A stretch of 20,000 nucleotides of DNA. Origin: an uncultured virus (IMG/VR IMGVR_UViG_3300033155_000850) (Duplodnaviria > Heunggongvirae > Uroviricota > Caudoviricetes). The notes below the pieces were generated by a model. That model saw only the letters and a list, made by a program, of their open reading frames with translations. It had not been told where the DNA came from and searched no databases. Shown one piece after another: positions 1 through 20,000 of this stretch. The stretch lies in IMG/VR virus record IMGVR_UViG_3300033155_000850; one strand, 5' to 3'. Within the stretch, counting starts at the first letter, position 1, and the number at the start of each line of letters is the position of its first letter. The translations under genes and the position numbers were made by a program.

Positions 1-49
1 AGACTTAAGCTATAGGTGAAGACACCGGCATTTATTAAAGAAATCAAAC

Positions 50-520
50 TAGGCGATTGCTTCTGCCCAGAATCACTAGAATGATAGACTAGTAGTATCC
101 AAACAAGTACAGGGCAATGTGCATATGTGGAGAGACGCTAGCCATTCAGGAGTCGCATAGCGTCATCTGTTTGAAGACCTAGCGGCCCAGGTCTAGAGGG
201 GCCGCCCCTATTTTCGGGGACGTTGATAATACTTGTCAACGCCCTACTGAAAGGGTATGGTTAGCCCGAGCGCAGAAGTAACTGGCCACCATGTCGCCGG
301 ATGGATTATGGTCTTATACGGTGGAGGGGTTGTATTGCACCTGTCTTACCTGTCGTAAGAAGCAATGCCGAGGAGTGTTGGCTACTCAGCTCTTTTACTC
401 AATGATGTAGCTGCGAAATGTGCGCTGTGGCGTATACATATATAGATCGATACTGTGATATTTTTTATTCTTTTACAGATCGGTCGACGACCCTACTAGC
501 CACAGATAGTAGGAGTCGTT
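50..520 (+). ncRNA. Candidate large structured ncRNA (may extend 5' beyond the window)
   Basis: No ORF >=60 aa. Consecutive stems: TGCCC 64-68/GGGCA 112-116; GACGCTA 134-140/TAGCGTC 158-164; H-type pseudoknot AGACCT 175-180/AGGTCT 189-194 with GCGGCCC 182-188/GGGCCGC 199-205; CGTTGATAA/TTGTCAACG 221-241; terminal hairpin 487-519 whose loop GCCACAG pairs with CTGTGGC 425-431. Confidence 0.6.
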
Positions 521-533
521 TAAAGGGGTAAGT

Positions 534-752
534 ATGTCTGATGTTATTTGGAATAAAGAACCTCCAACACAATCTGGATGGTATTGGTATAAGTCTGCAC
601 ACGGGCGAATATCAATGGTTTATCTTAGACACGGAGATTTTATTACTTCTTTAGTTCAATGTACTATAAAAAATCCGGAGGGTGTATTAGCTACAGATTT
701 TAAAGGTACTTGGTCACTTGAAATTATTCCTCCTACTGAACCGGGCTATTAA
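534..752 (+). CDS. Phage hypothetical protein (W-x4-P-T-x-x-GWYW motif)
   Basis: 72 aa ORF with AAGGGG SD; abuts next gene. Confidence 0.75.
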   Translation: MSDVIWNKEPPTQSGWYWYKSAHGRISMVYLRHGDFITSLVQCTIKNPEGVLATDFKGTWSLEIIPPTEPGY

Positions 753-905
753 ATGAAAAAAGCAATGTATGTAATATCAATACATAATAAGGGTGGAGCG
801 TATAAAAACGTTCTTTTTGAAGGCACACGAATTGAAGCTAGAGTTAGAGCTAAAGAAATTCGTGATAACAATGGCTCTAGAATTCACTTTGTGAGATATT
901 TATGA
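753..905 (+). CDS. Small basic hypothetical protein, 50 aa (MKKAMYVISIHNKGG...)
   Basis: Manually translated; fills the gap exactly, ATGA overlap with 902. Confidence 0.65.
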   Translation: MKKAMYVISIHNKGGAYKNVLFEGTRIEARVRAKEIRDNNGSRIHFVRYL

Positions 906-1276
906 GGTCACCTAAACAAATCGTAAGCGAAATTCTAGATAAAGGTTTAGCAGATAGTACTTGGCGAGAACAATATCCACAAGCTTATGAAAATTTATTG
1001 ACTTATAGAGAAGATTTAATTAGGTCTTTTGAATCTATTAAACCTACAGAATATCATTTTTTTACATCTAGCCAAGCTAATTGGGAGACCAGTCCTAGTC
1101 TATATACGTGTTTACGTAATCAACGAAGAGCGGATAAAAGGTTGAAGAACTTCATAATCAAGGGTTGTAACGTATTTAAAGTACCTTTACCTAATGATAA
1201 AGAACATCCATATGACATAGACAATTTTACCCCTCAAGTGGAGGGTACAGAGTGGCTTCATTATGAGAAGTATTAG
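902..1276 (+). CDS. Phage hypothetical protein
   Basis: 124 aa ORF, overlap-coupled on both sides. Confidence 0.75.
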   Translation: MRSPKQIVSEILDKGLADSTWREQYPQAYENLLTYREDLIRSFESIKPTEYHFFTSSQANWETSPSLYTCLRNQRRADKRLKNFIIKGCNVFKVPLPNDKEHPYDIDNFTPQVEGTEWLHYEKY

Positions 1277-1661
1277 TCTCATAGCATCTATTGCCCTATG
1301 TACAGGTTGTGCTCATACAGATCAATGGACTGATAAAGATACTAAACACTTTGCTACATACGTAGCGGCCGCATCGTTAGATACATTCAGCACAAACCGT
1401 TTAATAAACGATTTTTACTATACAGAGGAACGTAATCCTGTAATAGTAAGGACCTTTGGACAACGACCCTCTAAAAAAGAATTGATAGTTGGAACTATAG
1501 TAATCTCCATTACAAATTTCTTTATTGCTAGAGCTATTCCAGAAAAATATCGTCGCAAATATCTTTCTATATGGACCTTCGGGCATACGACTCTATCTAT
1601 GTATAATTTTAATTTGTACAACAAATGCGCAGGAATATATGACTGTGGTTCTATTGACTAA
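1263..1661 (+). CDS. Putative lipoprotein / membrane protein
   Basis: Signal peptide ending in lipobox-like LCTG-C; further hydrophobic helix LIVGTIVISITNFFIA. Confidence 0.65.
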   Translation: MRSISLIASIALCTGCAHTDQWTDKDTKHFATYVAAASLDTFSTNRLINDFYYTEERNPVIVRTFGQRPSKKELIVGTIVISITNFFIARAIPEKYRRKYLSIWTFGHTTLSMYNFNLYNKCAGIYDCGSID

Positions 1662-1818
1662 TGAACTGTGTTTATGTGGTGATCCAGATTGTCATAAATG
1701 TTTTCCTAAATATAGTGGTGAAGATGATTATTGTTTTGATGAAGATCAATTACGACAACAGGAAGTAGATGATGAAATGATAGAACGTCATCGTCGTAAA
1801 GGTGTTGATAATCATTGA
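1639..1818 (+). CDS. Small Cys-rich acidic protein (CLCGDPDCHKC)
   Basis: 3' part of ORF 1525-1818; ATG 1639 with AGGA SD; start uncertain. Confidence 0.55.
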   Translation: MTVVLLTNELCLCGDPDCHKCFPKYSGEDDYCFDEDQLRQQEVDDEMIERHRRKGVDNH

Positions 1819-1844
1819 TCCTACAAAATTCCGTTAAGGACCCA

Positions 1845-1874
1845 GTATACTTTGCTGTTTATTTGTAGTACTAT
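1845..1874 (+). promoter_or_regulatory. Early-type promoter GTATAC-N18-TACTAT
   Basis: Member of the repeated promoter family; shares upstream GGACCCAGTATAC with the copy at 5750. Confidence 0.75.
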
Positions 1875-1904
1875 TTACTTGACGATTAAATTGGAGGTTA
1901 AGAA

Positions 1905-2042
1905 ATTGAAAAGATAATCGTTGCAGTACTAGCTCCAATAATGATTGGGCTAGCGGCCTATCTAGCGTATACGATCGGCCTACTCATGGTGGCATTTATG
2001 ATGATATATGCCATATTGTATGAAGGAAATAGAGGTAATTGA
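1905..2042 (+). CDS. Small membrane protein, 45 aa, apparent ATT start
   Basis: GGAGGT SD 6 nt before ATT; product (M)EKIIVAVLAPIMIGLAAYLAYTIGLLMVAFMMIYAILYEGNRGN; stop abuts ATG 2044. Confidence 0.55.
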   Translation: MEKIIVAVLAPIMIGLAAYLAYTIGLLMVAFMMIYAILYEGNRGN

Positions 2043-2043
2043 A

Positions 2044-2562
2044 ATGACTGAAGAAACAGCGGTTGAAGCCGCACCAGTACCTTCGGGTCCTGCAGATGGT
2101 ATCGCTCGAGGTCGCATGCACGCAGCATTAGTTTTTGCGATTAAGTTTAACTCAGGCGAAGCCAAAGACGGTGATCTTGCACGTAAGTATGCAACGACAC
2201 CAGGTAAAATCAACGACATCCGTAAAGATCGTAACTTCAAGTACGTAATTGCTACTATGGCATTTACGGCCGGTGAAGTTCAGGAAGCTAAAGATCGTTT
2301 TGCAGCTTCCGTCAATGCGGAAAACAGCACGGTTGCTGAAGATCAGCGTCCTGTAGTTATCGAGGATGGTAATACCGCTCTTGATGGCGTACCTAAGACT
2401 GAGGGCGACAGTCAGTTGTCTAATGCTCGTAAGGCTGATCGCAAGCCTCGCGGCAAGTCAGGTGATGAAGCTGAATCTGAAGCAGGTGGCGAAGCCACAG
2501 CAGAAGCTGCTGAGGTAGATGCAGCCAGTGATGACGACCTCGACGGTCTATTGGACGAGTAA
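2044..2562 (+). CDS. HTH-type DNA-binding protein with acidic low-complexity tail
   Basis: ATG 2044 with GAGGT SD. Segment DGDLARKYATTPGKINDIRKDRNFKYV resembles the HTH of the genes at 16562 and 17875; ends DDDLDGLLDE. Confidence 0.7.
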   Translation: MTEETAVEAAPVPSGPADGIARGRMHAALVFAIKFNSGEAKDGDLARKYATTPGKINDIRKDRNFKYVIATMAFTAGEVQEAKDRFAASVNAENSTVAEDQRPVVIEDGNTALDGVPKTEGDSQLSNARKADRKPRGKSGDEAESEAGGEATAEAAEVDAASDDDLDGLLDE

Positions 2563-2612
2563 TCGTTCAGCCGCTGGTACACCGGTTAAAGTGTACTAGC
2601 ATTCACCATGCA

Positions 2613-2636
2613 ACGGGGGCTTCGGCCCCCGTATTT
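2613..2636 (+). terminator. Intrinsic terminator or processing hairpin
   Basis: ACGGGGGC-TTCG-GCCCCCGT followed by a weak ATTT tail. Confidence 0.6.
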
Positions 2637-2640
2637 AACT

Positions 2641-2727
2641 GAAGTATTTTGATGGTAATCGGTTAGAGCCGCTGTACAGCATTAAAAAGTCGGGAGACGC
2701 TACTCCGATTACCTTCAAAAATACTTT
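2641..2727 (+). ncRNA. Candidate small structured RNA (long stem capped by a junction)
   Basis: GAAGTATTTTGATGGTAATCGG 2641-2662 pairs with CCGATTACCTTCAAAAATACTTT 2705-2727; inner hairpins GCTG-TA-CAGC and GTC-GGGA-GAC. Confidence 0.55.
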
Positions 2728-2729
2728 AA

Positions 2730-2851
2730 CGCGGGATGGCGGAATTGGTAGACGCGCCCAAAGATCTGGGTATAGTGTATAATCCGCGGATTATATGGTT
2801 TTTCTAGATAAAACAGCTATTTTGCAGGTTCAAGTCCTGCTCCCGCTACCA
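2730..2851 (+). tRNA. Non-canonical tRNA-Leu-like RNA (no assignable anticodon, 53-nt variable region)
   Basis: Acceptor GCGGGA/TCCCGC; D-arm TGGCGGAATTGGTAGACGC; T-arm GCAGG-TTCAAGT-CCTGC; discriminator A plus encoded CCA; anticodon arm reduced to CCCA-AAGATC-TGGG. Confidence 0.85.
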
Positions 2852-2864
2852 AATCGGGTGATGT

Positions 2865-3095
2865 ATGTGGACTAAAAAATCTTACGCTACTGCAGAAGAT
2901 AATCATAAGGCTGGTCGTTGGACAATTAGTAATGGCCATGTGGATTTTGATATACACCTAACAATAGACGGCTCTCATGGTACAGGCTACATAGTATCAC
3001 CAGCAGAAGCCGATGCTTATGCAGATCATATCTTACGTAAGCTAAACGAACAGGACTCAATCGAGTTTCGCCCAATACTGCCCCAGGACCTATAG
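2865..3095 (+). CDS. Phage hypothetical protein
   Basis: 76 aa ORF, GGTGA SD. Confidence 0.7.
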   Translation: MWTKKSYATAEDNHKAGRWTISNGHVDFDIHLTIDGSHGTGYIVSPAEADAYADHILRKLNEQDSIEFRPILPQDL

Positions 3096-10199: not shown

Positions 10200-10383
10200 G
10201 ACCTTTGGACTTATGTCCGTAGGACCTTTAGGCTTATCACCACCGGACTCATGGCGGAGTCGGCACGAAAGTAAAGAGTGAATAGAATGAGAAATATACA
10301 TAAAAAGGGATAACCATGACGAGGTGTATAAACCCATGACATCATGACGCCCGTTCACCTATAAGCTCAAGTGCCGTAGTTTG

Positions 10384-13259: not shown

Positions 13260-13586
13260 ATGTCTGATACTCTTAATGGAATGCGTCACTGCGACGAATT
13301 CATCGATGACTATGAAGCACCTAACTGCCTACGTTGGTTCTTACTCATCAATCGATTGCCCGCCATCGAGAAAATGCTGGCCGCTGAAATGGGCGTCAAT
13401 CCAAAGCTCTTTGCAGATGTAATCAAGCCGAACAATCAAGGCCGCACACAAAGAGTGCGTGTTGTAATGGCTTCAAGATTCGGCGATGTAGGAATATCCA
13501 TTAACCTACATCGTGAACACGGTTATTCTAAAAGAGTCGCCGTCGAAGAACTCACTAACTTCAGAAATACATTGGAACATGATTAG
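13260..13586 (+). CDS. Conserved-looking phage hypothetical protein
   Basis: ATG 13260 with AAGGA SD; RVRVVMASRFGDVGI motif. Confidence 0.75.
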   Translation: MSDTLNGMRHCDEFIDDYEAPNCLRWFLLINRLPAIEKMLAAEMGVNPKLFADVIKPNNQGRTQRVRVVMASRFGDVGISINLHREHGYSKRVAVEELTNFRNTLEHD

Positions 13587-13597
13587 GAGTATGTGCC

Positions 13598-13813
13598 ATG
13601 AACTACATGATCATTCAAAATACAGAGAATCCTGACACAGTTAGAGAACCGTTTCCTATTGTTCAAATGTTCACTAACGACAATCTCATGGACCTCGCTA
13701 AGTTCGTCCAATATATGGTCGATAATCATGGTGATCTTGACAATGATCCGGGTTGTAGAGCGGCTCATACATTTTTACACTTATTGGGTCAATGGGAAGA
13801 TAGAACACAATGA
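13598..13813 (+). CDS. Phage hypothetical protein
   Basis: 71 aa, AGGAG SD. Confidence 0.75.
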   Translation: MNYMIIQNTENPDTVREPFPIVQMFTNDNLMDLAKFVQYMVDNHGDLDNDPGCRAAHTFLHLLGQWEDRTQ

Positions 13814-14283
13814 AGCTAATTCATTATAGTCGTGTGCCTATTGCTAAGTTACGTTCACGAAGACAAAAAGGTCCATATTCTCGCCATGATAAACCAAAAG
13901 GTCTTTGGGTGTCAGTAGAGGATTCAAATCATAGCTGGCATGACTGGTGTATAAGTCAAGATTTCTCAATAGGTGCATTGCAGTTTCCTCATTATGTACA
14001 ACTGGTTCCCAATGCAAATATCTTACTGTTAGATACTGATGATAAGATTTTAGAATTCTCTGAAGAATATCTTGTTGATCCGCCTTTTAAAACGAGTGTA
14101 TCTCTTAACTGGTTTATTGACTGGAAACGATTATCTAGAGAATATCATGGTATCATTATAGCTCCCTATAGTTGGGGTTTAAGATTGGACCAACGTGTTA
14201 GCTGGTATTATGGTTGGGATTGTGCTAGTGGTGTAATTTGGAATAAAAGAGCGATTGCTAAACTGGAAGGAGCATTCGAATGA
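13810..14283 (+). CDS. Putative ADP-ribosyltransferase-like fold protein
   Basis: LIHYS...KPKGLWVS...IDWKRLSREYHGIII...WDCASGVIWN follows the ART-like strand order; family call from motif memory. Confidence 0.5.
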   Translation: MKLIHYSRVPIAKLRSRRQKGPYSRHDKPKGLWVSVEDSNHSWHDWCISQDFSIGALQFPHYVQLVPNANILLLDTDDKILEFSEEYLVDPPFKTSVSLNWFIDWKRLSREYHGIIIAPYSWGLRLDQRVSWYYGWDCASGVIWNKRAIAKLEGAFE

Positions 14284-14669
14284 ACGCACGAGAAGCAGCG
14301 AAACTTAAGGTCGGTGACTTTGTCATAGCGCCCAAGGTAGGTATATTCGATCCAAAGGCTATAGAACTCATTATAACCAAAGAGATCGATCCGAAAGCGA
14401 AAGGCAGTTTACCGCTTGTTAACTTTGAAGAAAACTCTCCAGATCTATACACTTACCTCTTACTGACTAAGGTTATAGTCATAAAACGACACAATTACCT
14501 TAAAAAGTCCGAAGACGTGTTCTTAACGAAAGACCTTATTTCAGAGATAGCCTCTGACAATGGACGACTAAACTATACTCTAGTGTTGAAGTTCCTAATC
14601 ACTGGCGCGACTGTCCACACAGAGTTCTTTAGATACACTCTCAAACATACAGGGTCTATGCGACCCTAG
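14280..14669 (+). CDS. Phage hypothetical protein
   Basis: 129 aa, GGAG SD, ATGA overlap. Confidence 0.75.
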   Translation: MNAREAAKLKVGDFVIAPKVGIFDPKAIELIITKEIDPKAKGSLPLVNFEENSPDLYTYLLLTKVIVIKRHNYLKKSEDVFLTKDLISEIASDNGRLNYTLVLKFLITGATVHTEFFRYTLKHTGSMRP

Positions 14670-14688
14670 TTACAGAGGAAAACTGATT

Positions 14689-14904
14689 ATGATAAATCTA
14701 GAAGAAGAACATGCTAAAGTAGTCCTTGGTCTCAAAAATATAAAGAGATCTATGGACGAGATGCGTGACGAAGGTCTCGGTGGTGACGATTTTGAAGGTC
14801 TATACCTTATGACCAAACTAGTTCCCGCTATAAGTAAAATCTTCGAATCAGACACCTCGCCTATGACTATAGTAGCTTTACAACATAAAGGCATTCAATC
14901 ATGA
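14689..14904 (+). CDS. Phage hypothetical protein
   Basis: 71 aa, GAGG SD. Confidence 0.7.
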   Translation: MINLEEEHAKVVLGLKNIKRSMDEMRDEGLGGDDFEGLYLMTKLVPAISKIFESDTSPMTIVALQHKGIQS

Positions 14905-15482
14905 AATTCTATGCAACGTTCGGTTCCAGTCATATCCATAATGTACGAGGAGCCACCTTTGGCTTTACTAGGCCTATGTGTATTGAGGCTCCAGATTACG
15001 ACTATGCTCGCAGAATGGTCTTCGCTGCTGTCGGCACTGCGTTCTGTACTATCTATACTGAGGAAGAATTTGACACGAAATACTACTCTCACTTCCCAGT
15101 TCTCCAACCAGATTTCAACTGTATGTCCATGCCAGATGGTAGGTGTGTTTCTACCGAACCTTGCATGCACGGCGACTTTATAATGATAGACCAAAAGATC
15201 CGGTCAGATCCATGGTCCACGCCAACAGATTCGATCCTTAAATTCAAGATCACTAAAGTGGTTCTAGTATACGAGAATGGTCTGTTCGCCGGTATGGACC
15301 AAGGATCAGGTGGGTATCCATTCCCTACCGACTCTATCTTTCAAGCACATATGTGGTCCGGAAAGGCGATCGACGAAATGGATCGCTACGTTAAAATGTT
15401 TTCGGAGCTGTCTCCTCGCATCATAGTTATCGATGTGAATACGATACCTTACTCACTTACGACTCACATTATAGACGATTAA
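14901..15482 (+). CDS. Phage hypothetical protein, probably multi-module
   Basis: 193 aa; last gene of the + strand block. Confidence 0.75.
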   Translation: MKFYATFGSSHIHNVRGATFGFTRPMCIEAPDYDYARRMVFAAVGTAFCTIYTEEEFDTKYYSHFPVLQPDFNCMSMPDGRCVSTEPCMHGDFIMIDQKIRSDPWSTPTDSILKFKITKVVLVYENGLFAGMDQGSGGYPFPTDSIFQAHMWSGKAIDEMDRYVKMFSELSPRIIVIDVNTIPYSLTTHIIDD

Positions 15483-15487
15483 TTATT

Positions 15488-15630
15488 GGGGGCCGACATC
15501 CCGTCATTTAAAGTCGGTAGTGCTTATACGGAGGATACGTCATGATGAAGTAGATTAAAGACCTACAAATAAGTGCTAAGCTCGGATATGAGTGTTCTGC
15601 CTTGGTTAAATGGTTGCTCTCTCAACCAGC
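15488..15630 (+). ncRNA. Candidate structured 3' RNA element
   Basis: Stems GCCGAC/GTCGGT (15492-15518), TAGTGCTTAT/ATAAGTGCTA (15518-15578), GCTC/GAGT, TGGTTG/CAACCA; no ORF. Confidence 0.4.
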
Positions 15631-15634
15631 CTAT

Positions 15635-15664
15635 TAGGCGAGTCGTTTAGGCTCGCCTATTTTT
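15635..15664 (+). terminator. Intrinsic terminator
   Basis: TAGGCGAGTC-GTTTA-GGCTCGCCTA-TTTTT. Confidence 0.85.
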
Positions 15665-15696
15665 ATGCGGCCAGCCTTCAGGTGGAGCGACTGCGC

Positions 15697-16172
15697 AATC
15701 TATAATCTTCTTAATCTATTATCCCCGTTGTAGATTCTGTAGATTATAGATCCTCGTTTCAATGAAATCTTTTCATAATAGAATCTACTTAGGGTGGTGG
15801 TCGATGTACTCACTGAAGTAGATTCACATACTACGGCCCAGCGGCCCTATGAGCTTAACGGATCACAGTATTAATCTCAGGTCTTCTCCGTTATAGATTA
15901 TAGATTGTTGTAGCAAAGCATGTAGATCCATAAGTTGTTGTTATATATAAGAATCTATTCTATCTATGAAATCTATATATATAAATGGAGGATATATTGA
16001 ATGATATATCTATGATTCCCCCAATGTAGATCGTGGTAGATTCGTAGATTTCATTGGTTGAAGATTTGGAGAGTTTCGGCATGACGGCGCTCAACAGCGC
16101 CCGAGGGGGCGAGTATCTTTATACCGGCGGGCCGACCAAAAGAACTCAACCGTAATAGATTTTGTAGATTCA
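15697..16172. repeat. Iteron-like TAGAT(T/C)/AATCTA cluster with IHF-like site (origin-like module A)
   Basis: About 20 copies in clustered direct and inverted groups; AT-rich core; TAAGTTGTTGTTA 15931-15943 has one mismatch to the IHF consensus. Confidence 0.7.
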
Positions 16173-16521
16173 CGTACGAGGTGCCGCCGTGCCGACCTTC
16201 GCCGAGTCAAGACCTTCGGCCCCTCGGTCCGCCGACTGTTCGTGGGGGTAAAAGTTTCCTCCCGTCGGAGGGGAGGAGCGTAGGACCTTCGGGCTCTCAC
16301 CCCAGAGGGCGAGGATAAGGTTGGAAAACGTGGACCTTCGGACATCGGCACCCCGACCTCGAGGTTTAAGCTAAGATAATAAGAACCGTCGTGCCGCGGG
16401 GGCGTAGGACCTTTTGGCCGGACCTTCGGCCGCTGGGGAAGGCAGCACTTCGGCCTGAGTTATACGTGGACGCAAATAAGAAGCATCCACGCAGGGGCGG
16501 CCCTCAGGACCTGCCCGCTTT

Positions 16522-16554
16522 AAAAAATGGGGGCCAGCCTAACGGCCAGCCCCC
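16522..16554 (-). terminator. Intrinsic terminator
   Basis: Minus strand GGGGGCTGGCC-GTTA-GGCTGGCCCCC-ATTTTTT. Confidence 0.8.
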
Positions 16555-16561
16555 GTCCTAA

Positions 16562-16828
16562 TCAACCCGCCTTAAAGTCTTTCTTGACGTGGTTGAAAGT
16601 ATAGCCACCGCGAGCGGAGTAGATCTGCCCGTAGGACAGCCCCAGTTCCTGGGCGGCTTGTTTGTGGCTCATTGCCACAAGATCACCGAACTTAACGCGA
16701 AAGGCGTCATCATCGGTCATGGACCTCTCACTCTTCGGCCCGCGGTCACGTACCTTGATGGCATCAACGCGGGTTTCCAGAGCCGTAACGCGCTCTTCCA
16801 AACTCAACTTCTTTTCGGGATTACCCAT
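16562..16828 (-). CDS. Coiled-coil + HTH DNA-binding protein (paralog 1), 88 aa
   Basis: AGGAGA SD before ATG 16828; HKQAAQELGLSYGQIYSARGGYTFNHV; own promoter and terminator. Confidence 0.85.
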   Translation of the reverse strand: MGNPEKKLSLEERVTALETRVDAIKVRDRGPKSERSMTDDDAFRVKFGDLVAMSHKQAAQELGLSYGQIYSARGGYTFNHVKKDFKAG

Positions 16829-16874
16829 GGTGGATCTCCTATATTGGCTAGAAAGTATTTTCCGGCCATAGTTA

Positions 16875-16904
16875 ATAGTACCATAGAGTAGCAACAATGT
16901 ATAC
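16875..16904 (-). promoter_or_regulatory. Early-type promoter GTATAC-N18-TACTAT
   Basis: Close match to the 11113 promoter, including upstream GAACATGTATACATTG. Confidence 0.85.
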
Positions 16905-17199
16905 ATGTTCCTTATACTCAGTTGTTATAAGAGAATCGTAGGACCTTCGGGCCGTCACGCCCCTCAGAGGGGGGACTATGGGGGGTAGGACCTTCGGGCC
17001 GCTCCTCCTCCTCGAGGGGGGACTATGGGGGGTAGGACCTTTCGGACCTTCGGCCTGCCGCGTGATGGTCCCCACAGGGACGGCTGAACCGGGCTGCTTT
17101 TTAGTAATGATGGACCTTCGGGCTGGTAGGACCTTCGGGCCGAAGGACCTTTTTAGGACCTTCGGGCCTCCCCCCGGGGCGCCCCCAATCATATCCGAC

Positions 17200-17244
17200 T
17201 TGACATAACGCAGATTCTAAATGATAATGACAATCATTATCATT
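17200..17244 (+). promoter_or_regulatory. Sigma70 promoter TTGACA-N17-GATAAT overlapped by a Fur box
   Basis: TTGACA 17200-17205; GATAAT 17223-17228; GATAATGACAATCATTATC 17223-17241 matches the Fur consensus at 18/19. Confidence 0.75.
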
Positions 17245-17381
17245 AACTTTTCGTCGGGCAAGGTTGCCATAAAAATCATCACGTCGGCACGCCAGATCAT
17301 TTCTAGCGCATTAAAATTTGCGATCGTGTAGGCCGTACGGGCCCAGAAAAGCTAAAATGGGGGACGACCCAGATTTCAGGC

Positions 17382-17410
17382 AAAAAAAGGGGCGACCCGG
17401 AGGCCGCCCT
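17382..17410 (-). terminator. Intrinsic terminator
   Basis: Minus strand AGGGCGGCC-TCCG-GGTCGCCCC-TTTTTTT; same hairpin repeated at 17704-17725. Confidence 0.85.
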
Positions 17411-17414
17411 ACTC

Positions 17415-17687
17415 TCATCTTCCCGACCAAGCTTCGATTGTGAATCGATTATCGAGATACTCACAAATTAGCTTCATCGGTTTTGACATCTTTGGATTTC
17501 CACGAACGATTTCCATAGGTTGTTTACCCATACAGAAACCCCAACCCAAACAATCATACCAGCCATAAAACCAGCTGTCTTCACTTGGTTCGACACCGAA
17601 ATGCTCTCTAATGTCATCATCGACATCAGAGAATAAGACGTCTGTGTCAGGCGCATTTTTGGACACTAACTTGAAATAGTTAGGCAT
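17415..17687 (-). CDS. Phage hypothetical protein, 90 aa (MPNYFKL...)
   Basis: AGGAG SD before ATG 17687. Confidence 0.8.
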   Translation of the reverse strand: MPNYFKLVSKNAPDTDVLFSDVDDDIREHFGVEPSEDSWFYGWYDCLGWGFCMGKQPMEIVRGNPKMSKPMKLICEYLDNRFTIEAWSGR

Positions 17688-17731
17688 TCTCTTACTCCTA
17701 AGTGGGGCGACCCGGAGGCCGCCCCGTGTGG

Positions 17732-17809
17732 TCATTCCAAACTAGTAATGATTGCTAGAAATGGAATGCAGATTATCAACAATGCTAAGCTGTAAAGAAT
17801 TCCAAACAT
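17732..17809 (-). CDS. Hydrophobic micropeptide, 25 aa (MFGILYSLALLIICIPFLAIITSLE)
   Basis: Manually translated; GGAAAGG SD; bracketed by hairpins 17843-17860 and 17704-17725. Confidence 0.55.
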   Translation of the reverse strand: MFGILYSLALLIICIPFLAIITSLE

Positions 17810-17842
17810 ATAACCTTTCCTTTTGCTTTGGCGTTAAAGTGC

Positions 17843-17860
17843 CGGGGCCTTTCGGCCCCG
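17843..17860 (-). terminator. Hairpin after HTH paralog 2
   Basis: CGGGGCC-GAAA-GGCCCCG, weak U tail. Confidence 0.55.
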
Positions 17861-17874
17861 ACCTTTCAACCTCC

Positions 17875-18186
17875 TTACGCTTTAACGTGGTTGAATGTGT
17901 AGCCCCCTCGAGCGCTGTAGATTTGTCCGTAGGACAAACCTAACACCTTCGCCGCTTCCTTGTGGCTTTTATCCTTCAGGTCTCCGAATTTGCACCTTTG
18001 TGCATCTTCATCGGTCATCGACCTTTCAGATTTTGGACCACGATCCCGAACCTTGATCGAATTGACCTTCGAGATTATCTCGTTGACCTTTCCAATCAGT
18101 TGGGCCGTGGTGGCCTTTTCACCCAATGTCTCAATTTTGACCTTTACATTGGTTCCTTCAGAAACTACCTTGTCAGTATTTGACAT
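17875..18186 (-). CDS. Coiled-coil + HTH DNA-binding protein (paralog 2)
   Basis: Shares IKVRDRGPKSERSMTD and LGLSYGQIYSARGGYTFNHVK with paralog 1; GGTGA SD before ATG 18186 (alternative start 18198). Confidence 0.85.
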   Translation of the reverse strand: MSNTDKVVSEGTNVKVKIETLGEKATTAQLIGKVNEIISKVNSIKVRDRGPKSERSMTDEDAQRCKFGDLKDKSHKEAAKVLGLSYGQIYSARGGYTFNHVKA

Positions 18187-18359
18187 AACATTCACCATAT
18201 AAGAACCTTATGGACCTCTTGATCCCGACAGGTTCACAAAATCGGGGAGGTAAATCTGGGGCCTCTTGGGCTTGCTCTTCGGCCTTCGGGCCGGTGCGGT
18301 TGAGCCAGTTTCTGCGCGCTGGCGGGCGGCTATTTATTTGTTTATTTGATCGTAGGTCC

Positions 18360-18388
18360 ATAATACCGTGTTGACCGGCAATGTACAC
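18360..18388 (-). promoter_or_regulatory. Promoter GTGTAC-N17-TATTAT (class 2)
   Basis: Shares CAACACGGTATTAT with the cassette promoters. Confidence 0.85.
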
Positions 18389-18646
18389 TTTTTATGCGCG
18401 ACTAAGTTGTTGATATGTAACGAGAAAGCAAACTAATTGAAATTAATTTAAAAGCCGTTATAAAACAACGGCTTACACGGAAAATAAACTTAAAGCTATA
18501 GTTGTACGCATTGTGCGACAAATCAGCTCACGACTATCCAGATCGTCCAGACTACATTATACGTATAGCCTTTATGCTACTATCAATGTACGATTTAGCG
18601 CTGACTGAGACGATCTGGGACGATGCTTTATATGGTCATTTTTGAA

Positions 18647-18664
18647 TAGTTTCGAGTGAAACTA
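18647..18664. promoter_or_regulatory. Palindromic operator-like site TAGTTTC-N4-GAAACTA
   Basis: Related copies at 19241-19258 and 19541-19558. Confidence 0.65.
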
Positions 18665-18701
18665 ATCTCAGCGCCCGGAAAAAAGTATGCCAACTTTGAG
18701 T

Positions 18702-18724
18702 GTAAATGACAATCATTATCATTA
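18702..18724. promoter_or_regulatory. Fur box
   Basis: GTAAATGACAATCATTATC matches at 16/19; 20-mer AATGACAATCATTATCATTA identical to 17226-17245. Confidence 0.65.
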
Positions 18725-18984
18725 GCCCAGAATGCAGCCAAGTGGCCTCTAAAAAGCAAACGAGAGACGTCCAGATCGTCCAGATCGCGTCGATACAGGG
18801 GGGCTCCGTGTTAGGCGTACGGCGGGAGAATCAACGGCTTACGTCGCTTTCGGTCCAGATCGTCCGTATCGTTGAGTCTATATGGCCTATATGCTACTAT
18901 CTAAAAGATATAAAGTGCTGATAGAGACGATCTGGACGCACGTTTAAGTGATTGATTTCTAACGAGTTTTAGTTGAAAATAAAC

Positions 18985-19013
18985 GTGTACATTCTAGCTC
19001 AACACGGTATTAT
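18985..19013 (+). promoter_or_regulatory. Cassette 1 promoter GTGTAC-N17-TATTAT with A-rich UP element
   Basis: Near-identical to 19285 and 19584. Confidence 0.85.
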
Positions 19014-19040
19014 AGAACTGTAATCAATGAGGAGACGAAA

Positions 19041-19199
19041 ATGGAAACTACAATAGCAGATCTTGAATTGTTTGTATTAGGTTTTCTGACATTTAACTTC
19101 GTAGTCATAATCATCTTCAGTATGATTCTAGACTCACGTATCACAAAGTTAGAGTCGAAGATGAGAAACAAGTACGTCGATAGATCTCGACTGATATAG
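19041..19199 (+). CDS. Small membrane protein, 52 aa (METTIADLELFVLGFLTFNFVVIIIFSMIL...)
   Basis: Manually translated; GAGGAG SD; between promoter and terminator. Confidence 0.75.
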   Translation: METTIADLELFVLGFLTFNFVVIIIFSMILDSRITKLESKMRNKYVDRSRLI

Positions 19200-19206
19200 G
19201 AGATCT

Positions 19207-19233
19207 GAGCGCTCTTCGGAGCGCTCTCTTTTT
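19207..19233 (+). terminator. Intrinsic terminator
   Basis: GAGCGCTC-TTCG-GAGCGCTC-TCTTTTT. Confidence 0.85.
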
Positions 19234-19284
19234 CCGAGAATAGTTTCACTCGTAACTAATCTTAGAGATTAATTGAAAATAAAC

Positions 19285-19313
19285 GTGTACATTTCCGGCC
19301 AACACGGTATTAT
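19285..19313 (+). promoter_or_regulatory. Cassette 2 promoter
   Basis: Exactly 300 bp after the cassette 1 promoter. Confidence 0.85.
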
Positions 19314-19340
19314 AGAACTGTAATCAACGAGGAGACGAAA

Positions 19341-19490
19341 ATGCAATACGCAATTGAAATAAACGAAAATGCCACGGTCAACCTAATTGATCAAAGCGGC
19401 AATATTCTTTTAGAGGCCGCGACGACCGACGAAGTCGATTCGTATATCGACGAAATCATCTCGATGTTGAAAAATCTTAAATACGATTAA
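19341..19490 (+). CDS. Small acidic protein, 49 aa (MQYAIEINENATVNLIDQSG...)
   Basis: Manually translated; GAGGAG SD. Confidence 0.75.
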   Translation: MQYAIEINENATVNLIDQSGNILLEAATTDEVDSYIDEIISMLKNLKYD

Positions 19491-19497
19491 GATTTAC

Positions 19498-19533
19498 GAA
19501 GGTGATAATGATTATCATTATCGCCTTCTTTTT
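19498..19533 (+). terminator. Intrinsic terminator whose stem contains a perfect Fur box
   Basis: GAAGGTGATAATGAT-T-ATCATTATCGCCTTC-TTTTT; 19504-19522 is the exact reverse complement of GATAATGATAATCATTATC. Confidence 0.8.
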
Positions 19534-19583
19534 CCGAGAATAGTTTCATTCGTAACTAATCTAGGAAATAATGTAAAATAAAC

Positions 19584-19612
19584 GTGTACATTTCTGATCA
19601 ATACGGTATTAT
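19584..19612 (+). promoter_or_regulatory. Cassette 3 promoter
   Basis: 299 bp after the cassette 2 promoter. Confidence 0.85.
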
Positions 19613-19636
19613 GGATCTATCAACAAGGAGAACGAA

Positions 19637-19843
19637 ATGACATCACGTAGAATCAGGAAGCAACAAACGACAATCAAAATTACGAATGACTTGATCGAAC
19701 GGACTAAGTCGGTTGTCATATATAAAGACGAACACGGTCGGTGGACGGTTCGTTGTTTCGATAAACGAGGTCGATATATCGGTGGTCGAAATAACACCAA
19801 TCATCATGACGCGGTCAATTCGGCTAGGTTGTATATGTCGTGA
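19637..19843 (+). CDS. Small basic hypothetical protein
   Basis: 68 aa, AAGGAG SD. Confidence 0.75.
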   Translation: MTSRRIRKQQTTIKITNDLIERTKSVVIYKDEHGRWTVRCFDKRGRYIGGRNNTNHHDAVNSARLYMS

Positions 19844-19849
19844 TATGTC

Positions 19850-19880
19850 AAGTCGGCCACCTCAGAGGTGGCCGACTTCT
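19850..19880 (+). terminator. Hairpin / probable terminator
   Basis: AAGTCGGCCACCTC-A-GAGGTGGCCGACTT. Confidence 0.65.
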
Positions 19881-19886
19881 GCCTCT

Positions 19887-20000
19887 CGACCAGCGCCTCC
19901 CGACCAGCGCCTCCCGACCAGCGCCTCCCGACCAGCGCCTCCCGACCAGCGCCTCCCGACCAGCGCCTCCCGACCAGCGCCTCCCGACCAGCGCCTCCCG
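19887..20000. repeat. Perfect 14-bp tandem repeat (CGACCAGCGCCTCC)n, at least 8 copies
   Basis: 8 exact units plus 2 nt, running off the window. Confidence 0.95.

Follow-up and report, generated by a model that had tools for sequence, protein, structure and literature searches.

Introduction

Leader hairpins that are processed by RNase III are known from phage early mRNAs, as in the T7 early region and the lambda N leader. The put RNA of phage HK022 is a double hairpin of ∼65 nt in an early phage transcript and acts in cis, according to the excerpted text of PMC8632103. GOLLD and ROOL are large, phage-associated RNAs that often lie near tRNAs and in prophages, and ROOL, with an average length of 581 nt, forms multistem junctions and pseudoknots (PMC5737381, excerpted text).

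The DNA examined here, referred to as the window, is a stretch of 20,000 nucleotides from an uncultured virus (IMG/VR record IMGVR_UViG_3300033155_000850). A first-pass annotation had read its left edge as the 3' part of a large, pseudoknotted and possibly undescribed non-coding RNA. As with GOLLD and ROOL, so far as the excerpt describes them, this left end is an ORF-free stretch of several hundred nt in a phage with a tRNA-like element nearby. Unlike these RNAs, it is matched by no Rfam 15 model, and most of positions 1-533 fold like shuffled sequence. The main result of this study is that a single large pseudoknotted RNA has weak support, and what the analysis covered leans against it.

Two abutting hairpins, 76 nt in all, that precede a + strand gene run resemble HK022 put as the excerpt portrays it. 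Unlike HK022, the phage is a distant, non-lambdoid siphophage, and the likeness is one of hairpin layout. The two 13-bp stems could also stack into a nearly continuous helix before the ribosome-binding site, an arrangement that may be analogous to the T7 and lambda N leaders.

The phage and its accessory region

The source is an uncultured siphophage, and the window covers an accessory region of small genes. An IMG/VR fragment (G001) is 100% identical to positions 13342-20000 and, beyond the window, encodes the large terminase, portal, scaffold, major head protein, tape measure and a J-like fibre. The closest cultured portal, that of Xanthomonas phage Xp15, has 41.5% identity, and the phage is distant and non-lambdoid. 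Nearly all proteins of the window are orphans. Pfam returned one match for 41 proteins, to a coiled-coil family and below threshold (18.6 bits against a cutoff of 31.6 bits), and PHROGs gave 6 weak or unnamed families for 20 proteins. The GC content of the phage is 0.399.

All sizeable ORFs from 534 to ∼15500 are on the + strand, and the first strong terminator-like site on that strand is at 10383. The gene run is punctuated by a phage-specific promoter family with seven copies, which were located with an HMM.

1834, 3551, 5739, 6580, 10476 and 11102, + strand; 16861-16910, - strand: copies of the promoter family (HMM)

The layout of the family is GTATACATTGCTG..., 17 nt, TG-n-TAnAAT. In two copies, the ATGs of real genes (3598 and 5786) lie 7 nt past the -10 box, which suggests leaderless mRNAs. 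When the promoter consensus was scanned in IMG/VR, the phage's own fragment was the sole match.

Coding status and composition of the left end

The left end of the window was examined for open reading frames, codon usage and base composition.

1-533, + strand: ORF-free stretch up to the left edge of the window (no ORF >45 aa, negative codon scores)
100-430, no strand assigned: GC island (GC 0.517)
522-752, + strand: ribosome-binding site AAAGGGG (522-528) and first gene, ATG 534, 72 aa (sequence, ORFs)

The claim of about 500 nt without an ORF at the left edge was borne out: the longest ORF in 1-533 is at most 45 aa on either strand, and none is open at the left edge. Codon models were trained on the long genes of this phage and of a relative. 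Codon log-odds across 1-533 were negative (-0.13 to -0.73) in all 120-nt windows and frames on both strands, compared with +0.29 to +0.36 for in-frame coding sequence and +0.15 to +0.42 for the neighbouring genes under the phage's own model. Because the log-odds are negative throughout and no ORF exceeds 45 aa, the stretch is truly non-coding. The first credible gene begins at 534, and its 72-aa product is an orphan whose only database match is itself.

Short ORFs do exist in the stretch, and some mRNAs of this phage appear leaderless, so one of them, such as 291-410 (39 aa, cysteine-rich), might be a real small gene. This is most improbable, given the negative codon scores, the lack of a Shine-Dalgarno sequence before ATG 291, the lack of a homologue of 291-410 and the absence of this ORF from the protein collection.

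The surrounding genome had been described as otherwise overlap-packed, which does not hold throughout: a second ORF-free stretch lies at 2563-2864 and folds more strongly (z -6.15). The GC island stands out from its flanks, where GC is 0.384 (1-99), 0.387 (441-533) and 0.346 (genes 534-1818). GC is 0.506 in 263-440.

Folding against shuffled controls

On the + strand, 50-533 folds at -166 kcal/mol (z -3.13), and 0/100 shuffles were as good. On the - strand z was -1.90, with 3/100 shuffles as good. The better-than-shuffled energy of the whole stretch therefore stands, but the signal is restricted to parts of it. When the last hairpins were left out, 1-440 gave z -1.61 (4/100 shuffles), and 100-432 gave z -1.34 (9/100 shuffles). 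Nine sub-windows were then folded with 200 shuffles each. Four of the nine had no excess folding, namely 50-135 (z +0.22), 130-200 (z -0.87), 255-345 (z +0.37) and 340-432 (z +0.79). Over half of 1-533 folds like shuffled sequence.

The excess folding is confined to two hairpin islands, 170-262 and 440-522. The picture of a stretch tiled by roughly ten stems does not hold for excess structure, with four of nine sub-windows at z -0.87 to +0.79. A coarser sliding scan (200-nt windows, 25 shuffles) was consistent with this result and showed 2200-2800 to be at least as structured. Both islands are also significant on the - strand, less strongly than on the + strand (island 1, z -2.89; island 2, z -4.08).

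Island 1 and the candidate pseudoknot

Island 1 (170-262) gave z values of -3.0 to -3.6. Within it, 170-245 gave z -3.64 (0/200 shuffles) and 219-262 gave z -2.51 (4/200 shuffles).

175-205, + strand: candidate compact H-type pseudoknot (sequence, script, fold of 170-245)
221-241, + strand: 9-bp hairpin with a 3-nt loop, an inverted repeat of the GUUGAUAAU / AUUGUCAAC type (folds)
242-255, + strand: small CCCU/AGGG hairpin with a 6-nt loop (fold of 219-262)

In the minimum-energy fold, 182-205 is a 7-bp, all-G/C hairpin, and the pseudoknot would arise from pairing of its 10-nt loop with 175-180. Stem S1 pairs 175-180 with 189-194 (6 bp), stem S2 pairs 182-188 with 199-205 (7 G-C-rich bp), and loops L1 and L3 have 1 nt and 4 nt. 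The H-type pseudoknot that had been proposed at 175-205 is thus present, and a script agrees, but whether it goes beyond chance is another matter: a comparable pseudoknot (at least 5+7 Watson-Crick bp within 45 nt) occurred in 49/1000 dinucleotide shuffles of 50-533. The element is mildly unusual against shuffles in a test that was post hoc.

Island 2 and the proposed long-range pairing

Island 2 holds the twin hairpin, by far the strongest folding signal of 1-533.

425-431, + strand: CTGTGGC, exact complement of the loop bases 499-505 (GCCACAG) (sequence)
445-485, + strand: hairpin A of the twin (fold of 440-522)
486-520, + strand: hairpin B of the twin (folds of 440-522 and 480-522)

The stem of hairpin A (13 bp) includes one bulge and two G-U pairs and is capped by a U-rich loop of 14 nt. 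Hairpin B directly abuts it and has 13 bp, one bulge and an 8-nt loop, GCCACAGA. The 440-522 segment folds at -32.3 kcal/mol (z -6.85, 0/200 shuffles), and the minimum-energy structure makes up 0.61 of the ensemble. Hairpin B on its own (480-522) gave z -4.06 (1/200 shuffles). It ends at 520, and about 3 nt separate it from the ribosome-binding site of the first gene. Of all parts of the stretch, the twin hairpin is the best candidate for a functional element.

The 8-nt loop of hairpin B contains 499-505, which had been proposed to pair over a long range with 425-431. The exact complement is there, but such pairs are at chance level. Ten perfect 7-mer inverted pairs were observed, compared with 6.8 +/- 3.3 in shuffles, and 197/1000 shuffles reached 10.

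Comparison with known RNA families

The whole window was searched with Rfam 15 (4227 models), which gave no match at the gathering score. The models presumably include GOLLD, ROOL, tmRNA, RNase P and the group I/II introns. With E values up to 10, only two snoRNA chance matches were found in 1-800, and none of any kind in 90-440. The earlier failure to match the RNA by eye to tmRNA, RNase P or group I/II intron cores now has a search behind it. ARAGORN at default settings called no tRNA or tmRNA gene. With 85% thresholds and introns allowed it made 16 calls, one of them at 303-465; these calls were taken as noise because 11/16 carry introns of 261-2287 nt.

These results bear on the proposal of a large, stand-alone and previously undescribed structured ncRNA that extends beyond the left edge and of which 1-533 would be the 3' part. 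Such an RNA would be consistent with a stretch that is ORF-free and has no coding signal, with a GC-rich island among AT-rich sequence, a common trait of structured RNAs, and with the better z value of 50-533 on the + strand (-3.13 vs -1.90). A compact pseudoknot that is sterically plausible is present, and the tRNA-like element is located 2.2 kb downstream. Against this, no Rfam model matches up to an E value of 10, and neither 1-440 (z -1.61) nor 100-432 (z -1.34) folds strongly, with four of nine sub-windows showing no excess. The helices that would close the structure or act over a long range are 7- to 9-mers, no more frequent than expected by chance. Finally, no homologues were found, and the relative examined in full, contig C86, lacks the block. 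We consider a single large ncRNA distinctly unlikely.

There is likewise a rather small chance that the GC island and the hairpin islands form the 3' end of a new large phage ncRNA class, with a real pseudoknot at 175-205, or, more modestly, that the twin hairpin is a put-like RNA that modifies the polymerase in a lineage remote from the lambdoids. Were the whole island a single RNA, an uncultured phage would have supplied a further class of large ncRNA.

Promoters, terminators and repeats

The HMM of the promoter family had no match in 1-533. Promoter-like sites are no commoner than in shuffles (7 vs 8.5), and a promoter suspected by eye at 432-463 was rejected, as neither the family HMM nor the consensus scan picked it up. 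No terminator-like site was found in 1-3000. In particular, 1-533 contains no G+C-rich hairpin directly followed by a U tract, as an intrinsic terminator would. A terminator at 182-215 was rejected for its inadequate U tract, the 182-205 hairpin being followed by CCCUAUUUUC, and the hairpin at 486-520 is followed merely by UUUAAA, which is not a U tract.

The search of 1-700 for repeat families yielded short two-copy chance matches only, with no operator-like motif or iteron. On this search, 1-533 was rejected as a transposon with terminal inverted repeats and as a replication origin; clustered iterons, usually AT-rich, would mark an origin, and none were found in 1-700. The hairpin at 242-255 and GCUCUUUUAC near 389-398 were taken by us to resemble lambda boxB and boxA, respectively. 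The idea was dropped, as the two elements are 135 nt apart and the 7-mer match is near chance.

Since both islands are significant on the - strand (z -2.89 and z -4.08), it is conceivable that the inverted repeats work at the DNA level: a phage protein might use them, for instance as operators or recombination sites where two modules meet. Promoter-like hexamers that point both ways inside the 221-241 palindrome would fit such a role. The + strand is consistently better, however, and the stems use G-U pairs, which are mismatches in DNA symmetry. The repeat search of 1-700 is also unfavorable, whereas a clear iteron cluster exists at 15697-16170, and the promoter-like sites do not exceed the shuffled number. 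A role as DNA sites is therefore quite improbable.

Homologues and relatives

No homologue of 1-533 was found in GenBank phages, plasmids, IMG/VR, C86 or 401 genomes. The searches were blastn of 1-3000 against GenBank phages, blastn of 40-533 against plasmids, a scan of IMG/VR with three exact patterns from 1-533, and a comparison of 1-1300 with the 401 genomes, which belong to the class of the MAG that contains C86 (G006); each gave nothing. In IMG/VR, relatives identified by the portal are short contigs that end short of the 1-533 region. A 62-kb JGI contig (L018) is also a relative of the phage, and its first 15.8 kb were examined.

The most useful relative was the contig G006:C86 (49,340 nt, GC 0.498), whose portal is 79% identical. 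C86 is binned in a MAG titled Acidimicrobiia, either a possible hint of the host lineage or an artefact of binning. Its positions 1230-1895 align with 1816-2475 of the window at 70%. The alignment begins at 1816, at a promoter-family copy in both genomes, and the family has 4 copies in C86. Upstream of the shared promoter C86 has different genes and then the contig end; blastn, nhmmer and tblastx of window 1-1815 across C86 found nothing similar, and C86's own spacer (130-290) has no such structure (z +0.94). Since C86 aligns only from 1816 and has other genes upstream, 1-1815 behaves as a variable cassette joined at the shared promoter. The cassette exists elsewhere, to judge from its 124-aa protein (902-1276), which has four relatives with 63-72% identity on short contigs. 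None of these relatives was in IMG/VR, the species genomes or the GenBank phages.

The greater GC content of the relatives (0.498 in C86 vs 0.399 here) raises the alternative that the GC island is an old relic from a GC-richer relative, either a mosaic junction or a long-decayed gene, with hairpins that are incidental or left over. The GC-rich patches at 1816-2475 and 16586-16759 do contain stretches that align with C86, and half of the GC island has no excess structure. A relic is nevertheless unlikely. There is no codon signal in any frame under the codon model of either phage, and tblastx against the relatives gave nothing below E 0.89. The stop-free frame 265-402 had only 3 weak matches, to internally repetitive proteins, among 1.84 billion, and the frame 282-407 had no match. 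The relic would also leave the twin hairpin (z -6.85) unaccounted for. In its plainer form, with 1-533 as a decayed gene, the idea was rejected, as codon scores are negative and protein and tblastx searches lent it no support.

A proposed leader or spacer with cis-acting hairpins

We tentatively favor the reading that 1-533 is an untranslated leader or spacer of a rightward (+ strand) transcript that carries cis-acting hairpins, and hold it with considerable doubt. On this view, a variable cassette of genes (534-1818) in the accessory region follows directly on the stretch. We infer that 1-533 is transcribed, that the direction is rightward and that the hairpins have a function. Read-through from the left is plausible because the genes are on the + strand to ∼15500, no terminator lies in 1-3000 and no family promoter lies in 1-533.

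The leader reading is favored by the twin hairpin, which is better on the + strand (z -6.85 vs -4.08) and uses G-U pairs. It is also favored by the tRNA-like element at 2730-2851, which likewise directly precedes a gene start (ATG 2865). Stable RNA structures placed immediately before genes suggest that a long polycistronic transcript is punctuated by sites for processing or stabilisation. Several observations go against the leader reading. The 263-440 part of the GC island folds no better than shuffles and is left unexplained, and a promoter search for the 534-1818 block identified none. Both hairpin islands are significant on the - strand too, the C86 spacer 130-290 is unstructured (z +0.94), and no homologue was found.

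Under the leader reading, island 2 would act in cis on the mRNA. It might be a processing or stabilising site, for example an RNase III-type double helix or a protective 5' structure. Alternatively, it might act on the transcribing polymerase, as a double hairpin of the put type. In both cases it would determine how the genes behind it are expressed. The layout given for put in the excerpted text of PMC8632103, two adjacent stem-loops of ∼65 nt in total, is found here in 445-485 and 486-520. A put site would be expected in the nascent early transcript, shortly after an early promoter and ahead of terminators that the polymerase reads through. Here, the scans of 1-533 identified no promoter, and the + strand has its first strong terminator at 10383. 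Should the twin hairpin govern processing, stability or polymerase behaviour, this lineage, which has no cultured member, would possess a compact regulatory RNA. If it is put-like, RNA-only antitermination would extend beyond HK022-type phages.

Other features of the window

The tRNA-like element (2730-2851, + strand) is missed by default tools, and 13 nt separate its end from ATG 2865. Its D arm is of the Leu type, its T arm and acceptor match phage tRNA-Met genes without a difference over 29 nt, and its 3' end is ACCA. An insert of ∼50 nt with a perfect palindrome sits in the variable region, and the anticodon arm is unusually formed and short. ARAGORN calls the element only at 85% thresholds with an intron, and the Rfam tRNA model gives it 13.4 bits (E 6.2). 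The T-arm pattern was found at 21 loci, all of them ordinary tRNAs (mostly tRNA-Met) in unrelated phages and otherwise dissimilar.

The ORF-free 2563-2729 (+ strand) follows an acidic 184-aa gene, and 2555-2870 as a whole gave z -6.15. It contains a GGGGGC-UUCG-GCCCCC hairpin with a weak U tail near 2611-2630 and a long hairpin at ∼2643-2727 closed by a 21-nt inverted repeat.

Further repeats lie toward the right end. The AT-rich 15697-16170 holds 14/27 of the window's TAGATT motifs, on both strands, and looks like an iteron-type replication origin from its motif content. The GC-rich 16210-17165 (0.55-0.585) holds 11/17 of the window's GGACCTTCGG-like sites, with 0.55 expected by chance, some of them in 47-nt units. 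The sites flank a leftward gene (∼16562-16829) for a small helix-turn-helix-like protein, which is driven by the inverted promoter-family copy and has a paralogue at 17875-18198. The site array may be a partition or regulatory array.

At 19858-20000, a 14-nt repeat of the CCGACCAGCGCCTC type occurs in at least 7 tandem copies and is cut by the right edge. By alignment offset, L018 starts near the equivalent of this repeat, which suggests an assembly break there. Finally, three 78-nt repeats spaced 300 nt apart, plus one inverted copy, occupy 18969-19645 and 18346-18392. Each contains a promoter-like box (TGTACA-17-TATTAT) along with a ribosome-binding site and an ATG, and the set resembles a small family of short gene cassettes in tandem.
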